Shown: piece by piece, positions 1 to 32,871 of the stretch
How positions within the stretch are numbered: position 1 is the first letter of the stretch
Layout: every line of letters starts with the position of its first letter
IMG/VR virus record: IMGVR_UViG_3300027509_000010
Strand: one strand, 5' to 3'
Origin: a virus
Length of the DNA stretch: 32,871 nt
Made by a program: the position numbers and the translations under genes
Notes under the pieces: generated by a model
Databases searched by the model: none
The model's input: the letters and a program-made list of their open reading frames with translations, nothing else
Told to the model about the DNA's origin: nothing

Positions 1-127
1 ATGGGTGGAGGTATTGGCGGCCGGTGCGGCCGGGGACTGCTAGCTCTGGCTGGGTCATGCTTGGGTCTCCAGGGTGTACTCGATGGTGGTGGATTGATCG
101 ATGCCCAGGGCGACGGTGTGGGTGGGG
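1..127. repeat. Left copy of a 127-bp exact direct terminal duplication, indicating a circular or terminally redundant contig
   Basis: Bases 1-127 (atgggtggaggtattggcgg...gtgtgggtgggg) are identical base for base to 32745-32871. Confidence 0.95.
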
Positions 128-569: not shown

Positions 570-916
570 CGGGAGAGTTTCTGGTCGTTGACGTAGGTGG
601 AGGCGGAACCGGCGAGCCAGAGGCCCAGGCGGAGTCCGGCGTTGCGCCAGAATGGGCGACGGACAGGGGACTCCCAGAGCGCTCCGCCGATTTCGATGGT
701 GTAGACCAGGCGGTCCCGGTGCTTGTGGCCGGGGGCCACGACGACGTCGGAGTGGCGGGCGTGGAGGGCGAACTCGTCGGCCCTGGTCTGGGCCTGGAGG
801 CTGTTGGCGTAGGTGTCGATGCACCACCAGCGGCGACCCAGGGCCAGGTAGTGGAGATATGCCTCCATCTGGTGTGGCTCACCGATGCAGATGGAGGCGA
901 TGCGAAACTGGGGCAT
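566..916 (-). CDS. Hypothetical protein, 116 aa
   Basis: Internal ATG of ORF 566..1114 overlaps the TAA of the upstream 61-aa gene by 1 nt. Composition is rich in W/Y/I/F/K, unlike the Gly/Val/Ala-rich antisense frame. Confidence 0.65.
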   Translation of the reverse strand: MPQFRIASICIGEPHQMEAYLHYLALGRRWWCIDTYANSLQAQTRADEFALHARHSDVVVAPGHKHRDRLVYTIEIGGALWESPVRRPFWRNAGLRLGLWLAGSASTYVNDQKLSR

Positions 917-1101
917 TACTGGCCGTACTTGGTGCGGAGGGTTTCTCCGGTGTAGATGACGGCGCCGTCGGTGTCGCTGTCGAGCTGGCGGGAGATGGCG
1001 TCCCAGCTCAATCCCTCCCCTCGACGTTCGGCGACCCAGTCCGGGAGGGCCTGGTCGAGCTTGATGTGGGCGAGTGTTTCCTGGGGTGTCTGTTTGGTCA
1101 T
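916..1101 (-). CDS. Small helix-turn-helix DNA-binding protein, 61 aa; first gene of the early operon
   Basis: The segment GLSWDAISRQLDSD has an HTH-like turn and recognition helix. The gene sits at the head of the long minus-strand gene string, divergent from the plus-strand gene at 1198. Confidence 0.6.
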   Translation of the reverse strand: MTKQTPQETLAHIKLDQALPDWVAERRGEGLSWDAISRQLDSDTDGAVIYTGETLRTKYGQ

Positions 1102-1197
1102 AGTCGCAGATCATATGGCAGATGGTTTGGAGAGGTCGGGATGGTGGCGGTGGGCGGGCCTATCGTTGACGGAATCCCTACAGAAAGCAACACACCC
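1102..1197. promoter_or_regulatory. Divergent intergenic control region
   Basis: 96-bp gap between divergent genes. On the minus strand TATGAT (revcomp of 1111-1116) lies 9 nt before the ATG at 1101 with no SD, which looks leaderless. GCAGAT is directly repeated at 1106-1111 and 1118-1123 around a CATATG palindrome. On the plus strand there is a TATCGT (TANNNT) at 1161-1166. Confidence 0.35.
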
Positions 1198-3926: not shown

Positions 3927-4696
3927 GGCGTCCCCCAGTTCGTGAGACGTCGAGGTGGTCGGACGTTGGCGATGGCCAGGCGAGTGGCCACCTCGTCCTC
4001 CCGGTGAAGGTGGCAGAGTGGGCGGCGGCGCTCGGCCCTGTTCCTGGTCCACGCCGGGAGCCCGCAATGGCGACACTCCCCGGCCAGGCCGCTGTCCTCA
4101 CCCAGGACGAGAGGGTCCGGCCCTCCACTCAGGGCGAGGGAGAGAGGGGCGAACGCCTCCGCCACTCGCTCCATGGCCTCGACCCACTGGTCCGACGCCT
4201 CGACGACCTGGACGACGGAATCGAACCACAGGTCCGGCCTGGGTAGGTCTCGGTCTCGGATGGTGAACTCCCGGAACCCTGGAGTGGCAGGGCCAGCCAC
4301 GGAGTGGAGGACCAGCGGGGAGATTCCCAGAGGCCAGCGCGCTCCGCCCGCCTCGACCAGGTCCCAGTAGTCCTCCGCCAGAGGGTCGAGCTGTCGCTCC
4401 GACGGGGAGGATGGGAACGGCGGCCGCCTGGCGACCAGGCCCTCCTCGTCCCGGACCTCGGTCATGTAAAGGCGACACGGTTGGCAGAACCATCCGTCCT
4501 CCAGGTCGAGGTGGAGCGAGGTGCAACGGACGCATCCATCGTCTATGACTGGGCCGACGTCGCTGTAGTGCTCCATGCTCCGCTGGGTGGGCGAGGCGAG
4601 GACGTCGAGGACGGCGTGGGTGGCCCTGGTGATGACGTCGGCCGGGAGGTGGAGGTCATCAATGCCCTCCAGGATGGAGTCGTAGGTGGTGGTCAT
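3923..4696 (-). CDS. Hypothetical protein with two zinc-ribbon motifs, 257 aa
   Basis: ATGA overlap with the upstream gene (4693-4696). Motifs are CVRC-x12-CQPC near the N-terminus and CRHCG-x15-CHLH near the C-terminus. Confidence 0.75.
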   Translation of the reverse strand: MTTTYDSILEGIDDLHLPADVITRATHAVLDVLASPTQRSMEHYSDVGPVIDDGCVRCTSLHLDLEDGWFCQPCRLYMTEVRDEEGLVARRPPFPSSPSERQLDPLAEDYWDLVEAGGARWPLGISPLVLHSVAGPATPGFREFTIRDRDLPRPDLWFDSVVQVVEASDQWVEAMERVAEAFAPLSLALSGGPDPLVLGEDSGLAGECRHCGLPAWTRNRAERRRPLCHLHREDEVATRLAIANVRPPRRLTNWGTP

Positions 4697-4887
4697 TTGA
4701 GCCAGCCCGATAGTCCGGTCCGGCCCTTGACGACCATGGCCGCCTTGCCCTCGTGGAGGGAGCAGTAGCGGCCGGGGTTGTAGATGGACAGGATGGTCCC
4801 GCACCCCTCGGCGCATCGGCGGCCCTCGACCTTGGCCTTGGGCTCGTGGGTGACGGTCTCTCCTGGCCGGTTCCGTAACGTCGCCAT
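4693..4887 (-). CDS. Small zinc-binding protein, 64 aa
   Basis: Start overlaps the LuxR gene stop by 1 nt. The motif is CAEGCG-x11-CSLH. Confidence 0.7.
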   Translation of the reverse strand: MATLRNRPGETVTHEPKAKVEGRRCAEGCGTILSIYNPGRYCSLHEGKAAMVVKGRTGLSGWLK

Positions 4888-5186
4888 TAGAGGAGCGCCT
4901 CCGGGACCTGATCGGCGGCGCCTGGGTGGAGGGCACCCATGACCACAATGGCCTTGTCCAGTTGCTTGACCCTGTAGCCCAGGACCAGGGCGACGGCCTT
5001 GGTTTGGCTGGGGACGTCGAGCTTGCGGAGGATGGCCTTGACCTGGTTGCGGACGGTGCCCTCGCCTTTCTTGAGTTTGGTGGCGACCTCGGCGATATCG
5101 AGGCCCTTGGTGAGGAGGCGGAGGACGTCGACCTCGGCCGGGGTGAGTGTCTTTATGAGCGAACCCAGAGGCTTGCGGCCGGTCAT
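4887..5186 (-). CDS. LuxR/GerE-family helix-turn-helix transcriptional regulator, stand-alone, 99 aa
   Basis: LTPAEVDVLRLLTKGLDIAEVATKLKKGEGTVRNQVKAILRKLDVPSQTKAVAL matches the GerE-type HTH pattern (LT.rE..vL.l...G....eIA..L..s..TV..h...i..KL.v..r..Av). ATGA overlap with the upstream gene. Confidence 0.88.
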   Translation of the reverse strand: MTGRKPLGSLIKTLTPAEVDVLRLLTKGLDIAEVATKLKKGEGTVRNQVKAILRKLDVPSQTKAVALVLGYRVKQLDKAIVVMGALHPGAADQVPEALL

Positions 5187-5401
5187 TGCTGGGCCTCCTT
5201 GCGTAGGTCGGCGATGACTTCCAGGAGCTGATTGCGTGTCCGCTCGGCGCCGTCGTTCTCCGCGTAGTTGAGGAGGCCGACCATGCGGAGGGCCACGTCC
5301 TCGCTCATGCCGGAGATGAGTGGCGTGCGGTCGAGGACTGTGCAGATGGCCCAGCGGTTGACGTCCCAGGAGTGTGGGCGGGCGGTAAATTTAATGCCCA
5401 T
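5183..5401 (-). CDS. Hypothetical protein, 72 aa
   Basis: The ATG (MGIKFT...) overlaps the upstream TGA by 1 nt. The ORF track extends it two codons to a TTG. Confidence 0.65.
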   Translation of the reverse strand: MGIKFTARPHSWDVNRWAICTVLDRTPLISGMSEDVALRMVGLLNYAENDGAERTRNQLLEVIADLRKEAQQ

Positions 5402-5649
5402 CAGCAAGACCCAAACCGCTCAGAGATTAGAGCGCCAGCAAACTCGCCATTTACATCAATCTCAAACCCATAGGATTCAAGACTCTCAACATGTTCAGGG
5501 GTGAGACTTTCCGCCCATCCAGGGCCTGGTGCTGGAATCCAGAACACGTCATGGCTACATCCAGAGAATCGGCTTACCCCTCCATCTGGGAGGTATTGCT
5601 GAATGATCCGTAGAGCCTTGATGAAATCCTCCAGGTGGTGCCGGTCCAT
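5401..5649 (-). CDS. Small acidic hypothetical protein, 82 aa, in a low-GC islet
   Basis: The ATG overlaps the upstream TGA by 1 nt. My hand count gives 129/249 GC (about 52%) against about 65% in the flanks. The protein has 13 Asp/Glu and 5 Lys/Arg. Confidence 0.65.
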   Translation of the reverse strand: MDRHHLEDFIKALRIIQQYLPDGGVSRFSGCSHDVFWIPAPGPGWAESLTPEHVESLESYGFEIDVNGEFAGALISERFGSC

Positions 5650-5783
5650 CAGAATGCCCAGCGGAGGAGGGCGACGGCGGTGGCGAACACGGCGAGGGCC
5701 AGGATGGCCAGGATGGTGACGGTGGCTCCGATGACGACGATGCGGGCCGTGTCCTCCGTGAGCTTGTCGTGGGTGGACTTCAT
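5649..5783 (-). CDS. Single-pass small membrane protein, 44 aa
   Basis: Internal ATG of ORF 5649..5846, preceded by AGGAGA 6 nt upstream. The TM helix is IVVIGATVTILAILALAVFATAVALL. Confidence 0.65.
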   Translation of the reverse strand: MKSTHDKLTEDTARIVVIGATVTILAILALAVFATAVALLRWAF

Positions 5784-5812
5784 AGGTTTCTCCTGTTGGT
5801 AGGTGTGGGGGT

Positions 5813-5841
5813 ACCATACAGGACAGGGCGCCCGGTTCCAA
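5813..5841 (-). promoter_or_regulatory. Sigma-70-like promoter for the accessory operon
   Basis: On the minus strand: TTGGAA (5841-5836), a 17-nt spacer, then TATGGT (5818-5813). The -10 ends 29 nt upstream of the ATG at 5783, and the leader contains the AGGAGA SD. Confidence 0.45.
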
Positions 5842-5982
5842 ACCATCTGGGATATGGGCCGCTCGACCCATGGAGAAACACCCAGCCAGGGCCGACCAGA
5901 TAGACATGGAAACCACGGCCATCCTCATCGCCTACCTCGACGGACACCTCCGCCTCGACCAGCTCGACGTGGCCCTGGCCTC

Positions 5983-6027
5983 AAAAAAGGGGAAAGGCCC
6001 TCCACCCCTGGAGAAAGGTGGAGGCCC
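5983..6027 (-). terminator. Intrinsic terminator ending the late/lysis operon
   Basis: On the minus strand: gggcctccacc, a 10-nt loop, ggtggagggcc (8 bp, one mismatch, 2 bp), then TTTCCCCTTTTTT. It starts 22 nt after the endolysin stop. Confidence 0.6.
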
Positions 6028-6048
6028 TCGACGTCGGCAACTACGACG

Positions 6049-7008
6049 TCACCCCGGCGCTAACGTCCCGCGCGCCTTGGCAAGGATTGACTCCGCCCGC
6101 TCCAGGTCCCCGCGACCCGAAGCAATGAACCGGCCAGCCAACGCCAGCGACTCCACCAGGTCAGCGTCGACAGAGACAGCAACAGGGACGACAGGGTCAG
6201 GCGCCTGGGCCGGTGGGGCGGCCGCCAGCAACCTCTCCGCCCGCCTGGTGTCGTCGCCATAGATGCCGTCCACCCAGAGCGCCCTCATCGGATATTTACC
6301 CAGGTCGATGAGACCAAGCTCGGGGCGAGCCAGGGCCGCCGCCCAGAGGTCCGCCTGGAGGTCCTTGACTTGCTGACCGACAGGGACGTCCGGGAGGTCG
6401 ATGGCGGCCTGGTCGAGGTCCGGCAGTTCGTGACCCAGGACGGCCCCGGCGAACACGGCCCAGGTCCGGTCCGTCATATCTGGGTCCGTATGGTCCTGCT
6501 CTGGAATCTGGCCGTGACCAAACCAGCCGCGGCCGTCGTCCCATTGCTGGTTGGTGGCCTTGCGGTAGGGCTTGGTCATGCGCCCCAGGGGGAACGCTGG
6601 GAGGACCCAGCCGGTGGCGGTGAGCCAGCGGAGCAGAGCGGCCAGGGCCACGAGTAGCTCGGTGGTGTGCTCGTGACCGGCGTGGCCCTCCAGCTCGATT
6701 TGGATGGCGCCGTCCGTGTTGGTCTCCACCCCGCCGCGACGATTACGTAGCGCCCGCGAGTAGTGGTCCAGGCGGTAGTGCTGGTGGACGGCCCCGGTGG
6801 CGAGGACGGTGAAATGAGGGATTCCTCCGCTCTGGGGGTACCAGTTGAGAACTCCGCCGCTGGCCTGGTTGAAATCGTTGAGCGAGGAGGGGCCGCCCTG
6901 GGTGGTGTGGGCGACGCCCTTGCGGTTCTCGGGGTCACGGAACGCGGCCGTGGGCCACTCTTCATAGGCGGTCCAGATGGCGTCCGGGTAGATGACTTGG
7001 CGCTCCAT
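6049..7008 (-). CDS. Endolysin: N-acetylmuramoyl-L-alanine amidase (Amidase_2/PGRP-like) with a C-terminal peptidoglycan-binding domain
   Basis: The N-terminal part has amidase_2-like motifs (VAHTTQG, IPHFTV, NTDGAIQIELEGHAGH, GHGQIPEQDHTDP). The C-terminal part, VKDLQADLWAA...LWVDGIYGDDTRRAERLL, resembles PG_binding_1. The gene lies directly downstream of a holin-like gene. Confidence 0.85.
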   Translation of the reverse strand: MERQVIYPDAIWTAYEEWPTAAFRDPENRKGVAHTTQGGPSSLNDFNQASGGVLNWYPQSGGIPHFTVLATGAVHQHYRLDHYSRALRNRRGGVETNTDGAIQIELEGHAGHEHTTELLVALAALLRWLTATGWVLPAFPLGRMTKPYRKATNQQWDDGRGWFGHGQIPEQDHTDPDMTDRTWAVFAGAVLGHELPDLDQAAIDLPDVPVGQQVKDLQADLWAAALARPELGLIDLGKYPMRALWVDGIYGDDTRRAERLLAAAPPAQAPDPVVPVAVSVDADLVESLALAGRFIASGRGDLERAESILAKARGTLAPG

Positions 7009-22677: not shown

Positions 22678-22880
22678 CGGCTTAGCGCCTTTTTGATTTC
22701 GCCCTCCAGGTCGCTAGGGGGGTCGAACGGAGAGAGGCAGTCTCCACGGGGGTGGGGGGGCTGGTGATTTTTCGAGCCCCCTGGGGGCTGGGGGTGGGGG
22801 GTGCCATGTGGGACTGTGCTGGAGGGTGTCTGGGTTGCCCGGATTTCGGCCTTGTACCAGGTGGGAGGGGGGGTGCCAGG

Positions 22881-22889
22881 TGGTATACT
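22881..22889 (+). promoter_or_regulatory. Extended -10 promoter element TGGTATACT for the plus-strand peptidase gene
   Basis: TGn-TATACT at 22881-22889 lies 27 nt upstream of the ATG at 22917. The leader carries GAAAGG 7 nt before the ATG. No good -35 is present. Confidence 0.4.
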
Positions 22890-22916
22890 GGAACCAAGCA
22901 ACCAGAAAGGCGCAAG

Positions 22917-23375
22917 ATGCGCATTCAACCTACATACCAAACCATCGGCGCGGAAGGTGTTGGTAACTGTATGCCAGCGTCTATTGCAACGATCACTGGC
23001 ATTGACCTGGCGGAGATTCCGCACTTCGTTGAGGCGGCGGTGGAGGCGGGGGCGGTGGCCGTTGATGGCTCCACCCTTGAGCCCATGGCCTGGCTCGGGG
23101 TGTTCGCCACGGTCCAGGGTTGGCTCACTCGGAACGGTTGGTCGCTCGATGTTGTCGAGCGCAACGGTGCGAGTCAGCTCGCTCACTCGGAGCCGGTGAT
23201 GTGCTTGGCGTTGGTGATGTCCCAACAGGTGGAGGGTGCCCCCCACGTCATCGTTGTGGATGGGGCGGGTCGTCAAGTGTGGGACCCCCAGTCGCTCAAT
23301 GAGCGAAGCTATCAGCCGGACGAGGTGCTGGCGATGGGGGCGGTGACCAAGCTGGCCTGGCCGCCTCGGGACTGA
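22917..23375 (+). CDS. Papain-fold cysteine peptidase, C39-like, 152 aa
   Basis: YQTIGAEGVGNCMPASIATITG fits a Gln...Cys nucleophile context, and APHVIVVDGAGRQVWDPQ fits a His...Asp context, as in peptidase C39-like domains. No signal peptide is present. It is a plus-strand gene with its own promoter-like element and terminator. Confidence 0.6.
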   Translation: MRIQPTYQTIGAEGVGNCMPASIATITGIDLAEIPHFVEAAVEAGAVAVDGSTLEPMAWLGVFATVQGWLTRNGWSLDVVERNGASQLAHSEPVMCLALVMSQQVEGAPHVIVVDGAGRQVWDPQSLNERSYQPDEVLAMGAVTKLAWPPRD

Positions 23376-23431: not shown

Positions 23432-23980
23432 TCATGTTGTGGCCTGGTTGATGAGTTGGGTGATGGGTTCGATGGCTCTGGTGTGGGTGGCTGGGAGTCC
23501 CAGGTGGTTTAGGTCTGGGTCTCGGACGGCGGCCTGGGTGAGGTGCCACAGCCAGAGGGCGTCCGCCTCGTCCTCGCTGTTGCCGTCGTAGTTCAGGCGC
23601 CGGACGGCGGCCAGGAGGACGTCGGTCTTGCTGGCGTTGCCCTTGCCAGTGGCGTAGGTCTTGATGGCCTGGGGTGGGACCTCCACGAACTGTATGCCTC
23701 GGAAGATGAGGCGCTTGCGGAGGATGCCTCCGAACTCGGCGAGGTCGTAGGCGCTGGAACCCTTGGCGTTGTAGGCGTATCGCTCGATGGCGACGAGGGT
23801 GGCTGGCTCGACTGCCTCGACCACGTCGGCGGCGAGGTTGTCGTATCGCTCGATGCGGAGGCGAGGGCTGGCGTCCTGGTCCTGGTGCTTGGTGCTGGTG
23901 TGGACGCTGGCCTCGCCTTGGGGGTTGATGACTCCGGTGGCTCGGATGCTGGGGTCGATGGCGGCGATGAGGTGGCTCAT
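23432..23980 (-). CDS. RuvC-like Holliday junction resolvase, 182 aa
   Basis: The start MSHLIAAIDPS supplies the catalytic Asp. VAIERYAY supplies the Glu, and NSEDEADALWL the C-terminal acidic pair. This is the typical RuvC-fold motif order. Confidence 0.8.
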   Translation of the reverse strand: MSHLIAAIDPSIRATGVINPQGEASVHTSTKHQDQDASPRLRIERYDNLAADVVEAVEPATLVAIERYAYNAKGSSAYDLAEFGGILRKRLIFRGIQFVEVPPQAIKTYATGKGNASKTDVLLAAVRRLNYDGNSEDEADALWLWHLTQAAVRDPDLNHLGLPATHTRAIEPITQLINQATT

Positions 23981-24015
23981 GGTGTTGGCTTTCTGTAGGT
24001 GGACTGGATGGTAGT

Positions 24016-24306
24016 TCGCGACACTCGCGACACTCGCGACAGGTGCGGCGGCCGCTCTGGGTGTCGCGAGTGTCGCGTGTCGCGTGGGGTTGCCGGAGGC
24101 CGGTGGGCTGACACGGTCACACAATCCCATAATCCCTGGAAACAACAGGGAGAGAGAGAGAGTTATCGTTTTGACCCTTTAACGCGACACGCGACTGGCG
24201 CGACACTTCGCCACTGTCAGCGGTTGCCTCGCGCTCTGGGTGGTCGGTGTCGCGTGGGTGTCGCGTCGGCTCCGGGACTGACGGAGGTGTCGCGAGGTGT
24301 CGCGAG
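24016..24306. repeat. Iteron-like array: 12 copies of (T)CGCGACAC / GTGTCGCG(A) flanking an AT-rich tract; candidate replication origin
   Basis: Forward copies lie at 24016-24042 (x3, tandem), 24183-24190 and 24199-24206. Inverted copies lie at 24061-24084 (x3), 24247-24254, 24258-24265, 24287-24296 and 24297-24306. The stretch 24121-24180 is 26/60 GC and includes (AG)6 at 24151-24162. Confidence 0.6.
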
Positions 24307-26978
24307 GCGTCCACGACGGTCTGGACGAGGAGGGTGGTGTCAGAGCACTGGAGCGCCCACTTAGCCACTCCGCTGGCCGTGGTCCCGGCCGGTGCCACCC
24401 AGCCCGCCACCACCAGCTCCAGGAGTGCCGCCTCGACGTCCTCGGCCTTGTGAGCTTTCCCTCCTGGCGAGCGCGGCCCGGTGCGGGTGATGTCTCGAAG
24501 GGTGTAGGTCTCGGTGGCCCTCTCGTCTCCGTTGCGCTTGGTTCGGCACCACCACTGGACCAGCTCGACGGCCAGAGTGACGTCGGCCTCCTCGGCGGTG
24601 CCGCATAGGTTGACGATGTGGGCGAGCCAGTACTGGCCCAGCTCGATGGCGGACTGGACGGTGGCCACACCTATGTCCGGCGCCGGGACCCTCCCCCCCT
24701 CCATCTCAATAGCGAGATGGAACAGGACGGCGGCCCTGGCGGTCGAGGACACCAGCTTGGGGATGTGGTCGGTGATGCGCCCCTCATATTCTCCGCCTGG
24801 CCGCTGCTTGACCTCCAGGGATTGATGCCACGCCAGGAACGTCCGCTGGGCGTCCGGGTCGAGGCGAAACTCCTGGGTGTCCGCCTTGGCGATGCGCTCC
24901 AGGAGCTGCTCCCACTCCGGCGCCAGGTGCGGCGGCGGTGCATTGAGGACGGTGCGGTCGGCGTAGCCAGGGACGAAATACGGTTCCGCTGGCATGAACC
25001 TCTGGGTGAGACCCCGCCCCGCATACTCGGCGTTCCGATAGATGCGGTGGGCCACGATGGGTTGCATGGCCAGGCTGATGACAGCGCGGGCGTTGTCCAC
25101 TATCAGCTCCCTCCCATCGGCGCGGTCCACGATGAGGCGGCCAGCGTCCCACCCTATGAGTAGGTTCTTGAGGGCCGGTGCCTTGCCTGGGTTGGCGTAG
25201 CGGTCGAGGGATTCCAGGAGGTCACCCTCGGAGCTGATGGCGTTGAGCTTGCCCCTGTTCCCGGCGAGGATGCGGACCATGCCCTCCGGGGTGAAGTCAT
25301 CAGACCAGAACTTTCGGACCTCGGGGATGTCGACCTCCACTCGTTGGCCGATGATGCGGACGGCCTCGTCCATGGCGGCGCCTTGCTCTGTTGGGTCCTT
25401 GGCCTTGGCCGCCCGCTGCTCCTCAATGGACAGGGCCTTGTCGAGGACCCTGGCCTTGGACTCTGCCTCTGCCCGGACCATAGAGGAGCGGGCGCCCACC
25501 CTGTCGGCGGTGGACTCCAGGCCCTTGATGAGTCTGGAGATGGTGGGCGACTTGCCGCCTCCGGTGCGCATCGCCAGGACCAGGTAGAGGTTGCATGGTT
25601 CGATCCAGCCGCCTCCGATGTGGATGGTGGCCCCCGACTCATTCCCGGCCGCTGACAGACAGGCGAGGGCTTTCTGCCCTGGGACGGCCAGTGGGGTCTT
25701 GAGGGCGTCGGAGATGGCGGTGGTGTAGGTGCCGACGATGCCGGGGAGGACGTGGACGGGGAACGCCGGGGGATGCCTACGGACGATAAGCGGCCGGGGT
25801 TGACCCTCCACTGGAGGTGCAGACTCCGCCCCCGTTTCGCCACTCTGGGTGGCGGAATCGGGTGAGCTCGCAGCTGCCGGCGCCACTGTCCGTGGGATTT
25901 CCTCGAGCAAATCGTGGGAGTGAGTGGACGACTCGGCGGCCTCCAGGAGCCACGCATCGGACTCCGCATTGAGGACAGCGGAGGCGGCGGTCGAGTGGTC
26001 CCCTCCGTGGTCGAGCGTCGCCATCAGACCAAAGGCGTCATACCAGCGGTCTTGCTCCAGCTTGTCATCGGCGGAGGAGTGACAGTTGAATGAGCCGTCC
26101 GGGTAGGTGGTGCCGGACTTGCCAGCGGTGTCCTTGCCTGGGCGGCGCCAGTGCTGTTGCCCAGGTGGCGCCCGGTCTGGCATTGGGGTCCAGCCGTGAC
26201 GGAGGAGGACCTCGGAGCATGGGGTCACGTCGTTGTAACGGTTCCCTGGTGTGTCCGCTCCATCGTGCTGGCGGAGCTGGTCCATGCGGCCGTGGTCGAC
26301 TGGCTCGGCGAGGAGGTAGGGCTCCAGGTCGTCCAGGTCGTAGGTGACAGGTGTGTCCTTGTAATGGGCGGCCACGGTGGGGGCGAGGCCGTCCACCTTG
26401 ATGTTGATGGTGCCGGGGAGTCGGAGGACTCTGTCCAGGTTGGACACGTTGTCGAGGTTGTATCCGGCCTGGACGAACCTGGCGTCCCATGTGTTGTGCC
26501 AGGCCCTGGAGAGGTCCGCGACGTCGGCGGCGTCCTGGGGCTCGGTGAATAGCCAGTAGAGGTGGAGGCCGTAGCCGGTGTCCACTACGGCGGATGGGCG
26601 GAGGGGGAACTCGGCGAGGATGGCGGCGGCCGCCTCTGGTGTCGGGTTGGGTAGCTGGCTGGGTTTGCGTTTGTGGGCCTGGTCGTGGTGGTAGTCCACG
26701 TCCAGCCAGAGTCCTGGGATGGTGACGACGTCGTCGCGGGTGCCGCGGCCCTCGACCACGTCGCGGCGGGTGCCTACCCCCCACCAGACGTTGTGCGTTC
26801 CGTGGAGGTCCTCGGCGACGATGTCGGCCAGGAGGTGGCGGTCGGCGACGGTGGCCCACTCGATGACCTGGTCCCCGGCGCCGTTGATGGCGAACAGGTT
26901 GAGGTATTCGTCCTGGGGGTGTTCGGAGTAGAGGAGGTCCAGCCAGTCGGTGAGTTGTTGGCGGTCGTCTGGTGTCAT
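24117..26978 (-). CDS. Bifunctional primase-polymerase (AEP/PrimPol) fused to a DUF3987-like P-loop helicase, 953 aa
   Basis: AEP motifs are LWLDVDY (DxD), DTGYGLHLYW (sGxGxHxY) and VLRLPGTIN. A Walker A motif MRTGGGKSPT lies downstream. The start MTPDDRQQL overlaps the upstream TGA as ATGA. Confidence 0.88.
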   Translation of the reverse strand: MTPDDRQQLTDWLDLLYSEHPQDEYLNLFAINGAGDQVIEWATVADRHLLADIVAEDLHGTHNVWWGVGTRRDVVEGRGTRDDVVTIPGLWLDVDYHHDQAHKRKPSQLPNPTPEAAAAILAEFPLRPSAVVDTGYGLHLYWLFTEPQDAADVADLSRAWHNTWDARFVQAGYNLDNVSNLDRVLRLPGTINIKVDGLAPTVAAHYKDTPVTYDLDDLEPYLLAEPVDHGRMDQLRQHDGADTPGNRYNDVTPCSEVLLRHGWTPMPDRAPPGQQHWRRPGKDTAGKSGTTYPDGSFNCHSSADDKLEQDRWYDAFGLMATLDHGGDHSTAASAVLNAESDAWLLEAAESSTHSHDLLEEIPRTVAPAAASSPDSATQSGETGAESAPPVEGQPRPLIVRRHPPAFPVHVLPGIVGTYTTAISDALKTPLAVPGQKALACLSAAGNESGATIHIGGGWIEPCNLYLVLAMRTGGGKSPTISRLIKGLESTADRVGARSSMVRAEAESKARVLDKALSIEEQRAAKAKDPTEQGAAMDEAVRIIGQRVEVDIPEVRKFWSDDFTPEGMVRILAGNRGKLNAISSEGDLLESLDRYANPGKAPALKNLLIGWDAGRLIVDRADGRELIVDNARAVISLAMQPIVAHRIYRNAEYAGRGLTQRFMPAEPYFVPGYADRTVLNAPPPHLAPEWEQLLERIAKADTQEFRLDPDAQRTFLAWHQSLEVKQRPGGEYEGRITDHIPKLVSSTARAAVLFHLAIEMEGGRVPAPDIGVATVQSAIELGQYWLAHIVNLCGTAEEADVTLAVELVQWWCRTKRNGDERATETYTLRDITRTGPRSPGGKAHKAEDVEAALLELVVAGWVAPAGTTASGVAKWALQCSDTTLLVQTVVDASRHLATPPSVPEPTRHPRDTDHPEREATADSGEVSRQSRVALKGQNDNSLSLPVVSRDYGIV

Positions 26979-27268
26979 CGGTTGTTTGTCCTCGACGGGT
27001 TGGGGCGGAGATGGAGTGGGGTGTGGATGGTGCCGTCCAGAAGCTCGAACGAGCAAGGACCGGAGGGGCCGCGGTAGTTGTCCCAGACGTCGGTGCCGTC
27101 GTAGAACCTGGGGAGGCCCAGGCGTTCGCGGGCGTCGGCGAAATACTCGTGGGGGAATTGGCCGTCGTCAATGATGAGGGGCTCCTCCAGGACTCGCCTG
27201 GCGCACTCCTCCAGACAGGGGTCACAATGACCCAGCGCCCTGGTGTGACGGCAGAATCTCGGAATCAC
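26975..27268 (-). CDS. Cys-rich hypothetical protein, 97 aa
   Basis: GTG start overlaps the upstream TGA as GTGA (27265-27268), and the stop overlaps the primase ATG. The motif is C-x8-C-x2-C-x3-C (CRHTRALGHCDPCLEEC). Confidence 0.6.
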   Translation of the reverse strand: MIPRFCRHTRALGHCDPCLEECARRVLEEPLIIDDGQFPHEYFADARERLGLPRFYDGTDVWDNYRGPSGPCSFELLDGTIHTPLHLRPNPSRTNNR

Positions 27269-27636
27269 TGGGCGGCCTCTCTGGGGAATTGGTAGTAGGT
27301 GGTGGCCGGGGTGGCGGCCTGGGTTGGTGTGAGTGGGTCTCCGTTGTCGTGGTGACCCAGGCAGGCGAGGACAGTGCCTGGCGATGCCTCGACGGTGGCG
27401 ATGACTCCGTGGGCGGTGAGACCCATGGCGGCGGGCGAGGTTCCCCAGGCGGCCAGGACGACGTCGGCGGCGCGTATCTCCTCGCTGGTCCTGGCTCGGT
27501 CCGGGTTGCCTCCCCATCTCCAGAGGTTGACGATGGCGAACGACTCGGCGCCCAGGCTGGCGGCGTGGTTGGCGGCGTGGCCCTGGGTGTCCTGGGTGCT
27601 GTCGAGTGGCTCCCAGGTCAGAAACAGGACCCTCAT
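27265..27636 (-). CDS. DUF1643-like protein, 123 aa
   Basis: The start MRVLFLTWEP overlaps the upstream TGA as ATGA. The pattern VLFL...IVNLW...VVLAAWG...ACLGHHDNGDPLTP resembles the DUF1643 signature as I remember it. Confidence 0.55.
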   Translation of the reverse strand: MRVLFLTWEPLDSTQDTQGHAANHAASLGAESFAIVNLWRWGGNPDRARTSEEIRAADVVLAAWGTSPAAMGLTAHGVIATVEASPGTVLACLGHHDNGDPLTPTQAATPATTYYQFPREAAQ

Positions 27637-27998
27637 GACTTGCGCCATGGGGAGAGGGTGACGACGGCCTGGGCTAGATGGCTGGGAGACTCGATGGCTA
27701 TGGCCACGCCGGTCACCATGTCGCTGATGTCGTTACCGTCGAGGGAGAGGCGATGGTCTGGCCCCTTGCTGGTGAGGATGAGGCGGCCCTCCCCCAGGTT
27801 GACGTGGAGGACTTCTGGAGTCAGGTCGACCACCTCGGTGACCTCGACCACTGGCGGGGGCATCTCGATGGGCCGGACCCTCTCGACCATCCTGGAGCTG
27901 GAGCACTCTGGGCAGTCGTAGACACGGAATTCGGCCTCCGTCCATCGTCGGCAGGCGAGGCACTTGAACCATCGGCGGAGGAGCTTGCGGTCTCTCAT
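27633..27998 (-). CDS. Zinc-ribbon protein, 121 aa
   Basis: N-terminal CLAC-x13-CPEC motif. ATGA overlaps occur at both ends. Confidence 0.7.
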   Translation of the reverse strand: MRDRKLLRRWFKCLACRRWTEAEFRVYDCPECSSSRMVERVRPIEMPPPVVEVTEVVDLTPEVLHVNLGEGRLILTSKGPDHRLSLDGNDISDMVTGVAIAIESPSHLAQAVVTLSPWRKS

Positions 27999-28813
27999 GC
28001 TGCTGTCCTTGTGAACACCAGGAGGCGCTCGGCGTCTCGCTCCCTCGTCGGAGACAGGCCGTATCCGGTGTCCGACTCGATGACGACCTCCTCGTCCAGC
28101 GCCCAGCCCATCGCCTCCAGTGTCGAGGTGTGCCAGCCGGGGACGTCCTGGAACACGTCGCCCTTATAGAAACCTTTCACGTTGAGGAGGAGCTGGCCGT
28201 TGGGCTTGACGAGCGGGGTGAATGCGGCCCAGGCGAGCCGGTGGAGGTCGCGGTAGTGGCGGCCCCAGTGGAGCGCCCCTCCGTTGCCGTGGGTGAGCTG
28301 GCGGCCCAGGTCGATGACGTACCCGAACCTGGACGTACCGTCTGGGAGTGTCGTGTCTGCTCCGCGGTTGCCGTAGGCGCATGAGGTGACGATGGCGTCC
28401 AGCTCTGGCCCCTTGCGCTTGTTCTCCAGGGCGGCCCGGTGGCGGTCGTAGGCCCAGAGGATGGAGTCGGCACACTCCGTGTCTGGGTGCATCGCCGCGT
28501 ACTCCGGTTCTAGCTCGGTGGCCAGGATGGTGAGCTGGTCGCGTTTGAGGCGGCCACGGAGCTGGTGGAGGTCGTGGATGCGTCCGCTCCCGGCGTAGGG
28601 GTCCCATATGGTTCCGCCGTCGAGGTGGAGGCTGATGGCGGCCAGGATGGCGTCGGAGTATTTCGCCCAGTGCTTGGAGGCCGGGAGCGGGGACGATGAG
28701 GCCCATGAGAGGCCGCAGTCGGAGCATCCAACAGAGCGGACGCTTTCCGCCTCGATGGTTCCGGGGCAGTTGGACTTGGGGCAGTTGGAGGCGAGCGCTG
28801 GGAGGTTGCTCAT
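27995..28813 (-). CDS. SAM-dependent methyltransferase (putative DNA MTase) with an N-terminal zinc ribbon, 272 aa
   Basis: Motif I is WDPYAGSG. An acidic residue ends beta-2 (ILATELE). The motif-IV position reads IVTSCAYGN instead of (D/N/S)PP(Y/F). The N-terminus carries CPKSNC...CSDCG. ATGA overlaps occur at both ends. Confidence 0.6.
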   Translation of the reverse strand: MSNLPALASNCPKSNCPGTIEAESVRSVGCSDCGLSWASSSPLPASKHWAKYSDAILAAISLHLDGGTIWDPYAGSGRIHDLHQLRGRLKRDQLTILATELEPEYAAMHPDTECADSILWAYDRHRAALENKRKGPELDAIVTSCAYGNRGADTTLPDGTSRFGYVIDLGRQLTHGNGGALHWGRHYRDLHRLAWAAFTPLVKPNGQLLLNVKGFYKGDVFQDVPGWHTSTLEAMGWALDEEVVIESDTGYGLSPTRERDAERLLVFTRTAA

Positions 28814-29361
28814 GAGTATCGGGCCTCCAGGCGATTGCGGGCGGCGCGGCCGATGTCGGAGATGACTTTGGTGATGGGGCTTGAGTAGTAGTTGACCCTG
28901 GGCTCCCAGCGGCCGTTGGTGTTTGGGGTCTCGGCCTCTGTGAGACAGTGCTCGGCCCAGGAGGCGAACACGGCGGCGCATTGGATTAGCTCCTCCTGGC
29001 GGAGGGTCGAGGCGGTCGATTCGTCCAGGGCCTCGCCGATCTCCTCCAGGGCGATCTCTAGCCACTCCTGGTCCCACCTCCCGGAGAAGTCGGTCCCCCA
29101 CTTGTCGTCCTGGCGGAGTCGCTCCTCGTGGATGGCGTCGATGACGTCCTGGGTATTCATGGTGTTTCTCCTTGGTAGGGTGGTGAGAGAGTGGGGGCGG
29201 TTGCAGACGAGGAGGCCGTCTATCTCCTGCCAGTTGGCCGGGGTCTTGGCCATGATGAGGGTGGACGGGTTGGCACCCCTGCCTCGGGGGGCGGTCCTGG
29301 ATGGGGCGAGGTGCTTGACCTGGCCGCATAGATCGCATTGCCAGCGGACGTGGATGGCCAT
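28810..29361 (-). CDS. MazG-like nucleotide pyrophosphohydrolase with an in-frame Cys-containing N-terminal extension (183 aa; alternative 116-aa product from ATG 29160)
   Basis: The MazG-like core is AIHEERLRQDDKWG...LEEIGEALDE. The ATG at 29361 overlaps the upstream stop by 1 nt. The in-frame ATG at 29160 is preceded by AAGGAG with 7-nt spacing. No stop codon lies between them. Confidence 0.7.
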   Translation of the reverse strand: MAIHVRWQCDLCGQVKHLAPSRTAPRGRGANPSTLIMAKTPANWQEIDGLLVCNRPHSLTTLPRRNTMNTQDVIDAIHEERLRQDDKWGTDFSGRWDQEWLEIALEEIGEALDESTASTLRQEELIQCAAVFASWAEHCLTEAETPNTNGRWEPRVNYYSSPITKVISDIGRAARNRLEARYS

Positions 29362-29768
29362 CAGTCGAGGTCCGCCCGATAGGGCAAGTCTGGAAGGTCG
29401 TAGTCCTCCTGGGATGGAGAGGCGCCGTATTCGATGAGGCAGGAGTCGCAAGTCCCGACCACGCCCTGGACCCCGCAGAGGTCACAGACAGGCGCGGCCG
29501 GGGCTTGCTGGCTCGGGGCGGGAGACTCGGAGGGGGAGTCCGTCTGTCCGTCCCGGCGTAGGTGCTCCACGTAGCACTGGGAGCCGCTGGGCTCCCCGTC
29601 TCGCGGGAGGCAGAAGATGGAGCCCTGGACGCCGACGATGGCCTTGGCCCCTGGGACTAGTTTGGCGTCGCAGAATGAGCAACGTGGGAGCGCCCTGGCC
29701 TCCTGGCGGAGGTGCTTGGCGATGGTCTCCAATTGTTGCGCCATCCCTGCGGTGGATGTTGTGCGCAT
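29361..29768 (-). CDS. Zinc-finger protein (ClpX-ZB-like C4 motif) with an acidic C-terminal tail, 135 aa
   Basis: CSFCDAK...GSIFCLPRDG...CYVEH resembles the ClpX-type zinc-binding domain. A second cluster is CDLCG...CDSC. The C-terminus is EDYDLPDLPYRADLD. Confidence 0.65.
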   Translation of the reverse strand: MRTTSTAGMAQQLETIAKHLRQEARALPRCSFCDAKLVPGAKAIVGVQGSIFCLPRDGEPSGSQCYVEHLRRDGQTDSPSESPAPSQQAPAAPVCDLCGVQGVVGTCDSCLIEYGASPSQEDYDLPDLPYRADLD

Positions 29769-29840: not shown

Positions 29841-30380
29841 TTATCCGAGAAGCGACGCCGGAGCGACTGGTGGAGCCGCTGCTGGTGCAGGAGCTGGAGC
29901 CGCTGCTGGTGCAGGAGCTGGAGCCGCTGCTGGTGCAGGAGCTGGAGCCGCTGCTGGTGCAGGAGCTGGAGCCGCTGCTGGTGCAGGAGCTGGAGCCGCT
30001 GCCTCGGTGAGGTAGTGGCCCTTGGCGACGTCCAGGGTGAAACGCTTGGGGGCGTTCTGGCCAGGCTGGGCCTCGCCGTCCTCGGTGTAGATGAGGACGT
30101 GGCGGTCGCCGGACTCTGGCTTGGCCGCTGACAGGAGACTCTTGGCCATCCCCTGGCTGGCGGTGTACCAGAACAGTTGCGGCCATGGCGCCTCCGGGTC
30201 TCCCATTGCGATGCCGTCAGAGACCGGGGCCTCATGCTCGGCGCAACGGTAGAGGACCTGGGGCGAGCGCTTGCCCTTGTACTCGTTGACCTCCATGCGG
30301 ACGTACTCTCCGCCGATCCAGTCGCCCATACGGTGGGGCTTCCAGTAGTTGCTTGCTGTCTCGAATTCGGACCAGCTCAT
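29841..30380 (-). CDS. Hypothetical protein with a C-terminal (AAAPAPAP)n repeat, 179 aa
   Basis: ATGA overlap with the upstream gene. A globular N-terminal part of about 125 aa is followed by a perfect Ala/Pro repeat. Confidence 0.75.
   Translation of the reverse strand: MSWSEFETASNYWKPHRMGDWIGGEYVRMEVNEYKGKRSPQVLYRCAEHEAPVSDGIAMGDPEAPWPQLFWYTASQGMAKSLLSAAKPESGDRHVLIYTEDGEAQPGQNAPKRFTLDVAKGHYLTEAAAPAPAPAAAPAPAPAAAPAPAPAAAPAPAPAAAPAPAPAAAPPVAPASLLG
29872..30003. repeat. Perfect 24-bp tandem repeat, 5.5 copies (ggagccgctgctggtgcaggagct)
   Basis: Units at 29872, 29896, 29920, 29944 and 29968 are identical, and a 12-bp partial unit follows at 29992. On the minus strand they encode AAAPAPAP repeats. 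Confidence 0.95.
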
Positions 30381-30688
30381 AGTTGGGTTTCCTTGTTGGT
30401 TGGTGATTGCGAGGCGGGCGCCTCTATGTCACGAAGTGACAGATCATATGGCAAGTCATTTGCCGGGTGGTGGATGTGGCACTCGGGGTGGGGGTTGTGG
30501 TCTCCGTGGCACCAGCCCTGGCGGGTCATGTTGCGGCGGAAGTCCTCCGGCGTCGACCAGGTGACTGGGTGGCCGTCACGTAGGCCCTCCGACAGCGGGG
30601 GCACGATGAGACTGTCCCCGTCTCTGGACCCAGCCGAACCATGCACCTCGGACACTGGTGCCAGACCGGCGCCGTCGTCGTCTCTCAT
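30377..30688 (-). CDS. His/Cys-rich hypothetical protein, 103 aa
   Basis: ATGA overlaps at both ends support translation. The cluster is WCHGDHNPHPECHIHHP. Confidence 0.6.
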   Translation of the reverse strand: MRDDDGAGLAPVSEVHGSAGSRDGDSLIVPPLSEGLRDGHPVTWSTPEDFRRNMTRQGWCHGDHNPHPECHIHHPANDLPYDLSLRDIEAPASQSPTNKETQL

Positions 30689-32802
30689 TCCTTGCCTCCG
30701 TCGATGACGGTGAGGGCCGGGGCTGGCGCCTCGTCTGGATGCTTGGCGGCGAGGTGGTTGGCGAGACCCCGCTCAGTCTTATAGGTCTTGGGACAGTGGG
30801 GACACTGGCCTGGGTCGATGGTCGGCGGGGCCTCGGTTGGCTCCCCTGGGGTCGGTGGGACTGCCTTGGGCTTGGCCTTGGGTCCGGCGCTGGCCGCCAC
30901 CACCTTATTGCCGTCGTCCTTGGGTTTGACCAGGACGGACTCCGGTGGGTCCGCTTGCATCGTGAGGGCGTAGAGGACTGGGTCGTTGGCGACGGCCTTG
31001 GTGGAACGAGGTGAGGGGCGGCCGTGGCGGTTGGCCTGCCAGCGGGCGACCCCGCGGGCCACGGTCTTAGTCCCCCAGTATTGCTCCAGCTTGTACTCCC
31101 GGTCACGAGCGGTGGCCTCCAGGTAGTCGGCGTCCCCCACGGGGTCCACACTGATCTCATCGAGCGACCAGTGGCGGACCAGGGCCACCAGGCGCTCCAG
31201 CTCCAGGTCAGACATTGCCGAACCGACAGCGTCTTTGTTCCCCGTGGCCGCCCAGAGAATCGCCAGGGCCTCCTTGTCCAGGACGTTGTGGACCTGGAAC
31301 GCTACACACTCGGCGCGTCGAGCGGCCACGGCCTCGGCGACGTCGAGGATTTCGGTGATGCGCTCGACGTGGGCGGACGAGGCCTTGGGCGAGGACAGGT
31401 TGGGGATGTCCTCGCGCATCCTGGTCAGGTTCACGCGGGCGGCGAGGTCCTGGGGCAGGGCGTGCCAGCGCGGCCCGATGGCCTCGACGGCGGCCGGGTC
31501 AGCCTTGACAAACGTGGGAGTATCTGGCCCTGGCGACGCCTCCACCGCGGCCATGGCCGGAGTCCTGGTCGGTGGCGCCGGGGTCACGACGAATGGGAGC
31601 TGGTTGTGGGCCTCGACCCTGTCCAGCCACTCGTGAATCTGGCGGAAGTCTCCGGGGGTGTAGGTGTAGCGGGAGGTCTCGGCGCCCTCCGGCCCCCCGA
31701 ACGGTGGGATGGTGCCGGTGACCCAGAGGGTGCCCAGGTCTAGGAGGGCCTTGGCGCCTTTCTTGACGGTGGCCGGGTCCTCGGAGTGCTCCATGGCCAT
31801 GATGGCCGCAATGCGCGCCCTGGCGACGTCGTACGGGGTGGACGGTGTCGCTGTCGGGATGGGCTCCGGTGGGAATATCTCGTCGCCGATGACGGAGCGC
31901 TTGCCGACGTTGGACCAGTCGCCGGTCGGGATGGCTCCGACGAAGATGGCGAACTGGGATTCGTCGCAGACCACTGGTTTGACGTGGAGGCCGGTGGACC
32001 AGTTCTTGGACTGTTGCCACTCGGGGAGGGTGTAGGTCTTGCCTCCGTTGACCTTGACGTTGCGGGCGGGGTGGACGGGGAATACGTGCTCCTCGTCCGG
32101 TCGGATGGAGATGGCGACACCACCAGCGACCTCGGGGATGGGCTCCCGGCGCCAGGTGCCATCCTCGCCCTTGATGACCATGTAATCGGCGTAACGGATG
32201 GCGGCGAGCTGGAGGGCGACCTCTGGCCAGATGCCGGACCTCGATGTCTTGAGGTCGGCGACGACGAGGCCGTAGCCGGGGAGGTAGGCGATGAGGTCGA
32301 GGGTCCCGGCGTAGCCGTAGGTCTCGGAGAACACGGTGACCTCGACGTGGTCACAGACCGGTTGCCACTCTCGGAAAAAGCGTTCCACCACTGGAGCGAA
32401 CGGCCCGCACGATGTGCGACACCAATCGGACCCAGGGCCGCCCAGGGCCAGCTCCTCGAAATACTCGTGGGCGGCGTCGCCCTGGTCCCCGGCGTGGTCA
32501 CGGTCGCGGTCTGATGCCTTGGCGATCCGGTCCATGATGACTTTGGGGTCATCGGGGTATTGGGTGGAAACCTCCAGCCACTCCTCCAGGCCCCAGTAGG
32601 CATACTCGGCGGTGCCGTATTTGATCCAGTTGTCGAGCTGTTTGGGGATGCCGCGCTTGATGACGGTGGTGATGGAGGTGTAGCGGTAGTCCAGGGGCCG
32701 GTGGTCTGGTTGGTAGTCGGCGGGGAGGGGCGGGTTGTGGGCGGATGGGTGGAGGTATTGGCGGCCGGTGCGGCCGGGGACTGCTAGCTCTGGCTGGGTC
32801 AT
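30685..32802 (-). CDS. PD-(D/E)XK (RecB/Cas4-like) nuclease with a long C-terminal extension ending in a classical C2H2 zinc finger, 705 aa
   Basis: Nuclease motifs are GYAGTLDLIAY (D), VVADLKTSRSG (D-x-K) and QLAAIRYADY (QxxxY). The C-terminal CPHCPKTYKTERGLANHLAAKH has the form C-x2-C-x3-Y-x5-L-x2-H-x4-H and maps to 30739-30804. Confidence 0.8.
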   Translation of the reverse strand: MTQPELAVPGRTGRQYLHPSAHNPPLPADYQPDHRPLDYRYTSITTVIKRGIPKQLDNWIKYGTAEYAYWGLEEWLEVSTQYPDDPKVIMDRIAKASDRDRDHAGDQGDAAHEYFEELALGGPGSDWCRTSCGPFAPVVERFFREWQPVCDHVEVTVFSETYGYAGTLDLIAYLPGYGLVVADLKTSRSGIWPEVALQLAAIRYADYMVIKGEDGTWRREPIPEVAGGVAISIRPDEEHVFPVHPARNVKVNGGKTYTLPEWQQSKNWSTGLHVKPVVCDESQFAIFVGAIPTGDWSNVGKRSVIGDEIFPPEPIPTATPSTPYDVARARIAAIMAMEHSEDPATVKKGAKALLDLGTLWVTGTIPPFGGPEGAETSRYTYTPGDFRQIHEWLDRVEAHNQLPFVVTPAPPTRTPAMAAVEASPGPDTPTFVKADPAAVEAIGPRWHALPQDLAARVNLTRMREDIPNLSSPKASSAHVERITEILDVAEAVAARRAECVAFQVHNVLDKEALAILWAATGNKDAVGSAMSDLELERLVALVRHWSLDEISVDPVGDADYLEATARDREYKLEQYWGTKTVARGVARWQANRHGRPSPRSTKAVANDPVLYALTMQADPPESVLVKPKDDGNKVVAASAGPKAKPKAVPPTPGEPTEAPPTIDPGQCPHCPKTYKTERGLANHLAAKHPDEAPAPALTVIDGGKE

Positions 32803-32871
32803 GCTTGGGTCTCCAGGGTGTACTCGATGGTGGTGGATTGATCGATGCCCAGGGCGACGGTGTGGGTGGGG
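32745..32871. repeat. Right copy of the 127-bp terminal duplication
   Basis: Identical to 1-127. It duplicates the 3' end of CDS 55..288 and the start codon region of CDS 30685..32802. Confidence 0.95.

Follow-up and report, generated by a model that had tools for sequence, protein, structure and literature searches.

Why should a phage exonuclease end in a classical C2H2 zinc finger, and what lies between the two? The question is raised by IMG/VR virus record IMGVR_UViG_3300027509_000010, which we analysed over its whole length of 32,871 nucleotides (the window). The initial annotation, made from the letters alone, had read the open reading frame (ORF) at 30685..32802 on the minus strand as a PD-(D/E)XK nuclease of RecB/Cas4 type, fused through a ~350-aa extension that it could not recognise to a single finger, and had proposed that the finger directs the enzyme to specific DNA such as an iteron/origin region. 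Present results showed that the protein is a long, so far uncharacterised form of a known exonuclease family, accompanied by an obligate partner gene and carrying a classical zinc finger as a one-off. The explanation that we prefer, with a probability of roughly 0.5, is an MGME1-like end-processing exonuclease that works with a module-coupled partner binding single-stranded DNA (ssDNA), and whose basic tail and finger act as an extra nucleic-acid anchor.

The gene itself is real, as had been proposed. It encodes 705 aa (stop codon included in 30685..32802), its ATG overlaps the stop codon of an upstream 77-aa gene (ATGA) and its stop codon overlaps the ATG of the next ORF, and its GC content at third codon positions (GC3) is 0.85, like that of real genes in this 65%-GC window. 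The nuclease region occupies aa 1-317 (31852..32802, minus strand; core ~aa 38-300). PHROG 298 ‘exonuclease’ covers aa 40-245 with E=1e-26, and the motifs named in the initial annotation are all present in a catalytic block at 32209..32298 (minus strand), which comprises D169 in GTLDLI, D183-L-K185 in ADLKTS and Q198 in QLAAIRY. When the query was aligned with 21 long homologs (alignment A1, 22 long forms), H112, E154, D169, D183, K185 and Q198 were invariant. The Q-h-x-x-Y motif reads QLAAY in most homologs, but at its Tyr position the query has Ile, and P0002 and P0007 have Ile or Leu. Pfam gave no nuclease match to the query even at E≤1, so that the protein falls short of the PDDEXK_1 (PF12705) threshold; a PF12705 annotation is precomputed on two short homologs. 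The nuclease domain was modelled by AlphaFold2 (AF2) at a predicted local distance difference test (pLDDT) score of mostly 85-95, and a Foldseek search with this model placed nine human MGME1 chains on top (E=2e-5 to 2e-4, TM score 0.60-0.70, target-normalised), followed by far weaker ones of AdnAB, RecE, Exo5, lambda Exo and Cas4, among which lambda Exo and RecE reached E=0.3-0.5 and the Cas4 structures E about 1. The alignment profile searched against PDB sequences also returned MGME1 as the best match (E=2.7e-5). Thus membership of the PD-(D/E)XK nuclease superfamily is well supported, and the N-terminal exonuclease assignment is borne out.

The Cas4 half of the ‘RecB/Cas4-type’ label did not stand. 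A Cas4-type Fe-S cluster formed by Cys128, 132, 150 and 279 was considered and rejected because those cysteines are not conserved; moreover, neither alignment A1 nor alignment A3 holds any invariant or near-invariant Cys column, which means that the defining Fe-S cluster of Cas4 is missing. The closest solved relative is instead human MGME1 (PDB 5ZYT, 5ZYU and 8XA9; TM 0.65-0.70 to target), likewise a RecB-type PD-(D/E)XK nuclease without an Fe-S cluster. Identity between the two is 14-16%, and MGME1 has neither the C-terminal helical module described below nor a finger. MGME1 is an ssDNA-specific bidirectional exonuclease (PMC11040146, PMC6237815), an activity that the phage enzyme may share. 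The query also carries an insert of ~40 residues in its nuclease domain (DEEHVFPVHPARNVKVNGGKTYTLPEWQQSKNWSTGLHVKPV, aa 236-275, window ~31978-32097, minus strand), partly modelled at pLDDT <50, which is absent from nearly all aligned long forms and has shorter counterparts at the same place in P0002 and P0007.

Proteins of this family are common in phages of Actinobacteria, in a shorter form. By tblastn, the first ~320 residues matched ~240 actinophage genomes at 27-31% identity, the matched products being ~270-aa proteins labelled exonuclease, Cas4 family exonuclease or RecB-like. The PHROG 298 exonucleases of Arthrobacter phages Soondubu (gp26) and BaileyBlu (gp25) and of Streptomyces phage Samy (gp34) are homologous over the N-terminal ~300 aa (27-31% identity, E down to 3e-21). 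The neighbourhood in Soondubu is broadly alike, with an endolysin upstream and a Holliday-junction resolvase and a primase/helicase downstream; however, these actinophage proteins are ~260-280 aa long and end after the nuclease domain, without module, partner gene or finger. A scan of genome contigs likewise returned distant short forms alone, and a word-indexed search that used alignments brought back hardly anything but short forms. The long forms came to light when 1.84 billion representatives were searched exhaustively with HMMER; this gave 1,608 relatives, many of them 480-830 aa long and aligning with the query through to a C-terminal signature (GSKxxxLxAAK..A..PRSxxxVAxDPxLxAL) that ends at about residue 614 in the query.

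The extension that had seemed unrecognisable is therefore a conserved domain. About 300 of its residues (aa 318-616; 30955..31851, minus strand) make up an all-alpha module, defined by alignments A1 and A2, a hidden Markov model (HMM) and AF2, with the motifs WPxGVPTL-like, HTxxxLxxI..VE..PF, R..ALPxDL and GxPNLxS..T..H; the rest of the ~350 aa first assigned to the extension is a disordered linker of ~50 residues before the finger. An HMM built from alignment A2 (aa 318-626) was run against 265 sequences, namely 185 metagenome proteins and 80 IMG/VR ORFs, query included, and 47 were positive (46 of the 264 sampled homologs besides the query). The window ORF itself scored E=4.5e-72, as a member of the seed alignment. 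Modelled alone, the module is all-helical, with 14 helices and a mean pLDDT of 84.5. Neither Pfam, searched with 22 members (no family match, scattered single hits at most), nor a profile search against PDB sequences (nothing significant), nor a Foldseek search of the model against PDB and BFVD (no match below E=1) related it to a known domain; one suggestive BFVD row is a 475-aa ‘PD-(D/E)XK nuclease’ of an uncultured phage, presumably another long form. Two identities were tried for the module and rejected: a fused annealing-protein domain, since an all-helical module is unlike the known single-strand annealing protein (SSAP) folds, and an intein or homing-endonuclease insert, because such motifs are missing and the module is C-terminal and conserved.

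GenBank phage records cover at most 46% of the query and at most 45% of the long homolog P0009, which indicates that the long-form family has not yet been seen in cultured phages. In L006/L007 and L008, the long-form gene is preceded by integrase, repressor-type helix-turn-helix (HTH) and HTH_17 genes at the start of the early operon, and in L099 by a run of HTH genes. A separate observation concerns locus L047, in which an ORF of ~505 aa (4573-6129, plus strand) lies downstream of a short-form exonuclease; its C-terminal part weakly resembles the last subdomain of the module (E=6e-4), and its N-terminus presumably resembles recombination directionality factors of the phiC31 gp3 type. Hence the helical module may also exist as a separate polypeptide.

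The module is accompanied by a partner gene. In the window this gene encodes 179 aa (29841..30380, minus strand; identified by blastp, HMM and alignment A5), and the protein is laid out as a globular N-terminal part of ~130 aa (~110 aa in homologs), a Pro/Ala linker and a hydrophobic tip, ASLLG. Compared by blastp with the genes downstream of other long forms, it matched those of L008 (E=1e-19) and L006 (E=8e-14). An HMM of the partner was positive in all eight long-form lineages with readable downstream DNA (the window, L006, L008, L012, L036, L097, L098 and L099) and gave no match at the other fetched loci, ~80 in number and nearly all short forms. In seven of the eight lineages the partner directly follows the exonuclease; in the window it is next but one, with a 103-aa ORF between. 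The homologs lie at 7399-7830 in L006, 11889-12293 in L008, ~4226-4573 in L012, ~5428-5780 in L036, 5542-6018 in L097, 5611-6060 in L098 and 5848-6291 in L099, and the eight proteins are 116-179 aa long. All eight consist of a compact N-terminal part and a short acidic or hydrophobic tip (ASLLG, ASSLV, ASDLL, ESDIF, ADELI, ADLFAS, ASDLI and AALLG), and six have a Pro/Ala-rich linker before the tip, whereas the two shortest, L012 and L036, have almost none. As far as can be read from the residues, this architecture is like that of ssDNA-binding proteins (SSBs); bacterial and phage SSBs share it, and their C-terminal tips recruit partner enzymes.

Downstream genes were also compared with the known SSAP families (Red-beta/RecT, ERF, Rad52-like, Sak4 and gp2.5), and no PHROG or Pfam match to any of them was found. 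Thus the earlier statement that no annealing-protein partner is recognisable downstream holds for the known families, but it overlooked a conserved gene of SSB-like architecture that follows the long forms. A PD-(D/E)XK exonuclease beside a small early-operon gene in a (probably) temperate phage is also the arrangement of lambda Exo with Red-beta and of RecE with RecT; in contrast to those systems, the window partner falls outside the known annealing-protein and SSB families, and neither lambda Exo nor RecE has a counterpart of the ~300-aa helical module that would serve here as a docking element.

The linker of the window partner, (AAAPAPAP)n, is coded by a perfect tandem repeat with a 24-bp unit in 5.5 copies (29871..30002). 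This coding repeat could pass for an iteron array. In assembly L001 it is collapsed to ~1.5 copies, with a partner of 147 aa instead of 179 aa, and contigs L002 and L003 end inside or right beside it; because of this collapse and these contig ends the copy number is uncertain, being either variable or an assembly artefact. As it is the only tandem repeat nearby, and a search for an intergenic iteron array as a target of the finger found none, the iteron/origin target that had been proposed is left without support, and targeting of specific DNA by the finger would in any case be a speculation.

Beyond the module, the query alone continues for 89 residues (aa 617-705; 30688..30954, minus strand), a lineage-specific tail that is predicted to be disordered up to the finger (pLDDT <50 for aa 625-674). 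It is absent from the 21 aligned long homologs and from all 46 other long forms. The tail runs from a Lys/Pro-rich basic stretch (KPKDDGNKVVAASAGPKAKPK, aa 626-646; 30865..30927, minus strand; by sequence reading) through an acidic Pro-rich spacer to the finger, with 17 more residues after it. The finger (CPHCPKTYKTERGLANHLAAKH, aa 667-688; 30739..30804, minus strand; by pattern, Pfam and phmmer) reads C-x2-C-x3-Y-x5-L-x2-H-x4-H, with predicted ligands C667, C670, H683 and H688 and core residues Y674 and L680, and agrees with both the ligand spacing C-x2-4-C-x12-H-x3-5-H and the hydrophobic core of the class; its position had been given exactly, and the classical consensus is matched at every position. 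Among 200,000 shuffles of the window exonuclease, 3 gave the strict pattern and 77 a loose one, and a translation of the window in all six frames contains no in-frame strict match besides the finger. Two other strings of the C-x-C...H...H kind were set aside: that at 22861-22923 fails the strict pattern and lies in an ORF that fails the GC3 coding filter, and that at 23967-24032 fails the strict pattern and is in frame with neither of the adjacent genes.

Searched against PDB sequences by phmmer, the tail gave 47 weak matches, and 47 of 47 were C2H2 finger proteins, the best being ZNF524 (E=0.0024) and the GAGA factor (E=0.0088); these alignments reach flanking residues, as in PxQCPxC...L..H...KHP against finger 4 of ZNF524. 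AF2 placed a helix at aa 677-687, the expected place of the finger helix, where both His ligands sit. On sequence grounds the finger is genuine, and its beta-beta-alpha fold is putative.

How unusual is the combination? Classical C2H2 fingers are described as almost exclusive to eukaryotes, with examples from archaea and archaeal viruses (PMC3541406). The initial annotation was right to call the pairing with an exonuclease uncommon, as none of the 184 other fetched proteins and none of the 80 IMG/VR homolog ORFs contains a classical C2H2 motif. It had also named orthologs without the Cys/His ligands as an observation that would count against the finger; this is formally the case, since the orthologs are without the whole tail. 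No close relative of the window phage was found in which the finger could be followed: searches with the C-terminal half gave none in IMG/VR or the JGI metagenomes, a degenerate DNA pattern for CPHCPKTY(KT) matched nothing in the metagenomes or IMG/VR, and the primase/helicase led to none in IMG/VR.

Other long forms stop at most ~20 residues past the module, apart from a few with different tails. The closest long forms, P0002 and P0007, bear charged C-terminal tails of 24-43 aa, predicted as helices, and P0037 has a tail of 69 aa with CRCG...H. Three short forms of 326-395 aa, P0026, P0063 and P0053, share the motif C..x.CGHHxxLH...GC at the C-terminus; the tail of P0149 is Cys-rich, and P0020 (entry P0020/P0151/P0152) carries a CxxC...CxxC insert within the nuclease domain. 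Outside the query, none of these Cys/His appendages of the family is a classical C2H2 finger. The variety of tails indicates that the C-terminal end of this exonuclease tolerates and repeatedly acquires add-ons, some of them metal-binding.

Parallels to the finger arrangement exist elsewhere. The DNA-binding domain of the GAGA factor (PDB 1YUI) is likewise a single classical C2H2 finger with an upstream Lys-rich segment, and in the phmmer alignment query residues 641-688, from P641, pair with residues 1-48 of the GAGA chain, that is with its N-terminal Lys-rich residues and finger. This alignment is marginal (E=0.36 with the full protein, as against 0.0088 with the tail alone), and unlike in GAGA the basic stretch and the finger of the window protein are parted by an acidic, Pro-rich spacer of ~20 residues; DNA binding is a prediction here. 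Bacillus phages AR9 and PBS1 and Staphylococcus jumbo phages encode proteins annotated ‘endonuclease fused to N-terminal Zn finger domain’, and tblastn of the tail gave weak matches to such Zn-finger-fusion endonucleases (E=0.01 to 1). They differ from the window enzyme in that the catalytic domain is another one and the finger is N-terminal and not C-terminal, and the similarity consists of the finger consensus alone. Small actinophage proteins labelled ‘C2H2-type domain-containing’ or ‘DNA binding’ were returned at E=5 to 9, which is not significant. In aprataxin, a HIT domain is arranged with a C2H2 finger, an accessory finger on a DNA-processing enzyme. The weak tblastn matches of the tail point to possible precedents for the arrangement of enzyme plus finger.

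Our preferred explanation treats the gene as three layers that would differ in age: nuclease, helical module and tail. The nuclease domain, with D169, D183 and K185 as catalytic residues and H112, E154 and Q198 as further conserved positions, would degrade or resect DNA ends during phage replication and recombination. The helical module would dock the partner, plausibly by the partner's C-terminal tip, so that the single strand exposed by the nuclease could be passed straight to it, as from lambda Exo to Red-beta or from E. coli ExoI to SSB. The tail would most likely be a zinc-dependent auxiliary nucleic-acid anchor in the GAGA style of a basic region plus one finger, which would give the enzyme a higher local affinity for DNA or a bias in where it loads, and which was probably acquired recently, together with the 103-aa ORF.

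Several results weigh against this explanation. On the side of the partner, Pfam and NCBIfam gave no match and PHROG none of known function; hhalign against T7 gp2.5 gave a probability of 0.2%, that is no detectable homology; and PDB profiles gave non-significant matches, mostly to the oligonucleotide/oligosaccharide-binding (OB) fold of RuvBL2 domain II (E=0.55-1.3), with an unrelated PrsA at E=0.3. The OB-fold hint was set aside because it was not significant. The proposed contact between module and partner is derived from their co-occurrence, and nuclease activity is predicted across the clade. For the finger, both Pfam matches, zf-C2H2_4 (PF13894; E=0.0011, 19.9 bits) and zf-C2H2 (PF00096; E=0.0046, 17.8 bits), score under their gathering scores (27 and 25.2, respectively), as a single finger often does with such whole-protein cut-offs. 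AF2 assigned no beta-hairpin and gave the finger a pLDDT of 37-70; the alignment there held the query alone, which accounts for the low confidence. As none of the 264 homologs examined has a finger, nothing speaks for selection on its Cys/His ligands; a lone classical finger, moreover, usually binds DNA weakly. Finally, the tail has a GC3 of 0.78 and the 103-aa ORF one of 0.72, lower than the 0.85-0.87 of the gene body, which fits a recent and possibly neutral acquisition.

The strongest competitor is built on this last point. The 103-aa ORF (WCHGDHNPHPECHIHH; 30377..30688, minus strand) lies between the exonuclease and the partner gene, is His/Cys-rich, is coupled translationally to the exonuclease stop codon (ATGA), and has no match in Pfam, PHROG or NCBIfam and no HNH motif by eye. 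Together with the tail it forms an insertion between module and partner gene (267 bp of tail plus 312 bp of ORF) that is found only in the window phage, and the two look like a single recent insertion of ~0.55 kb, of which the first part was fused in frame to the exonuclease. Such a history fits either a useful DNA-binding appendage or neutral accretion. In the latter case, ~0.55 kb of foreign DNA would have entered, the stop codon would have been lost or bypassed, and a stand-alone finger segment would have become fused to the enzyme; the finger may then fold and yet add nothing to the nuclease. The restriction of the inserted material to this phage, the other long forms' end within 20 aa of the module, the falling GC3 and the want of conservation data for the finger all speak for accretion, as does PHROG 6283, a phage family of unknown function with 56 positions that weakly matches the finger region (E=0.008) and indicates that small stand-alone finger genes may exist. 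But the tail is an unbroken in-frame extension of 89 codons with coding-type GC3, its third position still having the highest in-frame GC, and every position of the finger consensus is intact, including the hydrophobic core, where decay would be expected if it were neutral; moreover, the charged tails of P0002 and P0007 show that appendages at this end are tolerated and recurrent. We consider neutral accretion unlikely, and the best placed of the explanations that compete with an anchor.

A bolder construction would make the long-form exonuclease and its obligate partner an undescribed two-gene module for recombination or replication restart in actinobacterial temperate phages, in which an MGME1-like nuclease carries a helical adaptor of novel fold that recruits, by its tip, an ssDNA-binding or annealing protein of novel fold, with a C2H2 finger added here to direct the enzyme to particular DNA. 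We regard this as doubtful in its entirety, to about the same degree as neutral accretion.

Somewhat less probable again is a finger that is functional without reading DNA, for which contact with a protein (a replisome or repair factor of the host or the phage), binding of RNA or ssDNA, or stabilisation of the C-terminus would be the role. Eukaryotic single C2H2 fingers often bind protein or RNA, weak Pfam matches to zf-C2H2_jaz (dsRNA-binding) and zf-Di19 were obtained, and the predicted base-contact positions T676, R678, G679 and N682 are not strongly basic. Against such a role, a Lys/Pro-rich stretch lies 20-40 residues upstream of the finger, an arrangement that lets the single GAGA finger (PDB 1YUI) bind DNA, and the fusion partner is a DNA enzyme. 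A low-complexity tail in which Cys and His fall into a C2H2 pattern merely by chance, with no zinc site, is very improbable in a protein with just 7 Cys and 20 His, as the rarity of the strict pattern among shuffles and the PDB matches, all of them C2H2 fingers with alignments extending beyond the ligands, outweigh the sub-gathering Pfam scores, the low AF2 confidence and the want of a homolog of the finger.

The genome that carries the gene is complete. The first and last 127 nt of the window (1-127 and 32745-32871) are an identical direct repeat, which identifies a circularly closed assembly of 32,744 bp, and the first 58 nt of the exonuclease gene hence occur again at window 1-58. By third-position GC, nearly all credible genes are on the minus strand. 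They include a terminase, a RuvC-like resolvase (237 aa; 23432-24145, minus strand), a fusion of a primase-polymerase with a DUF3987-type helicase (979 aa; 24117-27056, minus strand) and tail genes with a Sipho_Gp37-type protein. The primase-polymerase/helicase and resolvase genes are situated 3.6 kb downstream of the exonuclease in the same operon; neither a DNA polymerase nor a known annealing protein was recognised among the window genes scanned. The terminase is <30% identical to any GenBank phage and its top matches are actinophages, which indicates a strongly diverged phage with a high-GC Gram-positive host, and megablast against GenBank phages gave no match for the exonuclease gene or for 25 kb of the window. 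The source is a small (32.7 kb), uncultured and highly divergent actinobacterial siphophage. Four ~32.8-kb contigs encode the exact exonuclease protein; the gene is DNA-identical in the three further assemblies, which represent the same genome broken at different points, and the assemblies may share one sample.

Two further features of this genome were noted. The plus strand has just one sizeable candidate gene (window 652-2454), which failed the GC3 coding filter and gave no Pfam or PHROG match; it is a mechanical ORF of 600 aa, called as 437 aa in two assemblies and as 240 aa in a third by gene callers, and occupies the integrase position of the related contigs L006 and L008. Several small proteins of the early operon (29361-29768, 27633-27998 and ~28810-29361, all minus strand) contain zinc-ribbon-like CxxC pairs: one of 135 aa has CSFC...C..C and CDLC...CDSC, one of 121 aa has weak Pfam matches to C1_2 and DUF7129, and one of 183 aa (~28810-29361; 13346-13897 in L001) begins with CDLC and matches PHROG 2831. 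Putative zinc-binding proteins are unusually numerous in this phage.

What do these observations mean for the family? The finger is a curiosity unless its binding of zinc and DNA is demonstrated or sister phages are found. If it does bind DNA, it would be a natural phage case of a classical C2H2 finger on a processive DNA-end nuclease, the same design principle as in engineered zinc-finger nucleases and rare in bacterial viruses. For the aligned long forms, the annotation ‘Cas4 family exonuclease’ is misleading, as they have no Fe-S cysteines and are MGME1-like. The pairing of module and partner is a more robust, reproducible and testable lead than the finger. Such exonuclease–partner pairs are raw material for recombineering tools, which are still limited in many Actinobacteria, and the pairing itself marks an uncharacterised and apparently widespread accessory system of the exonucleases of phages that infect high-GC Gram-positive hosts.

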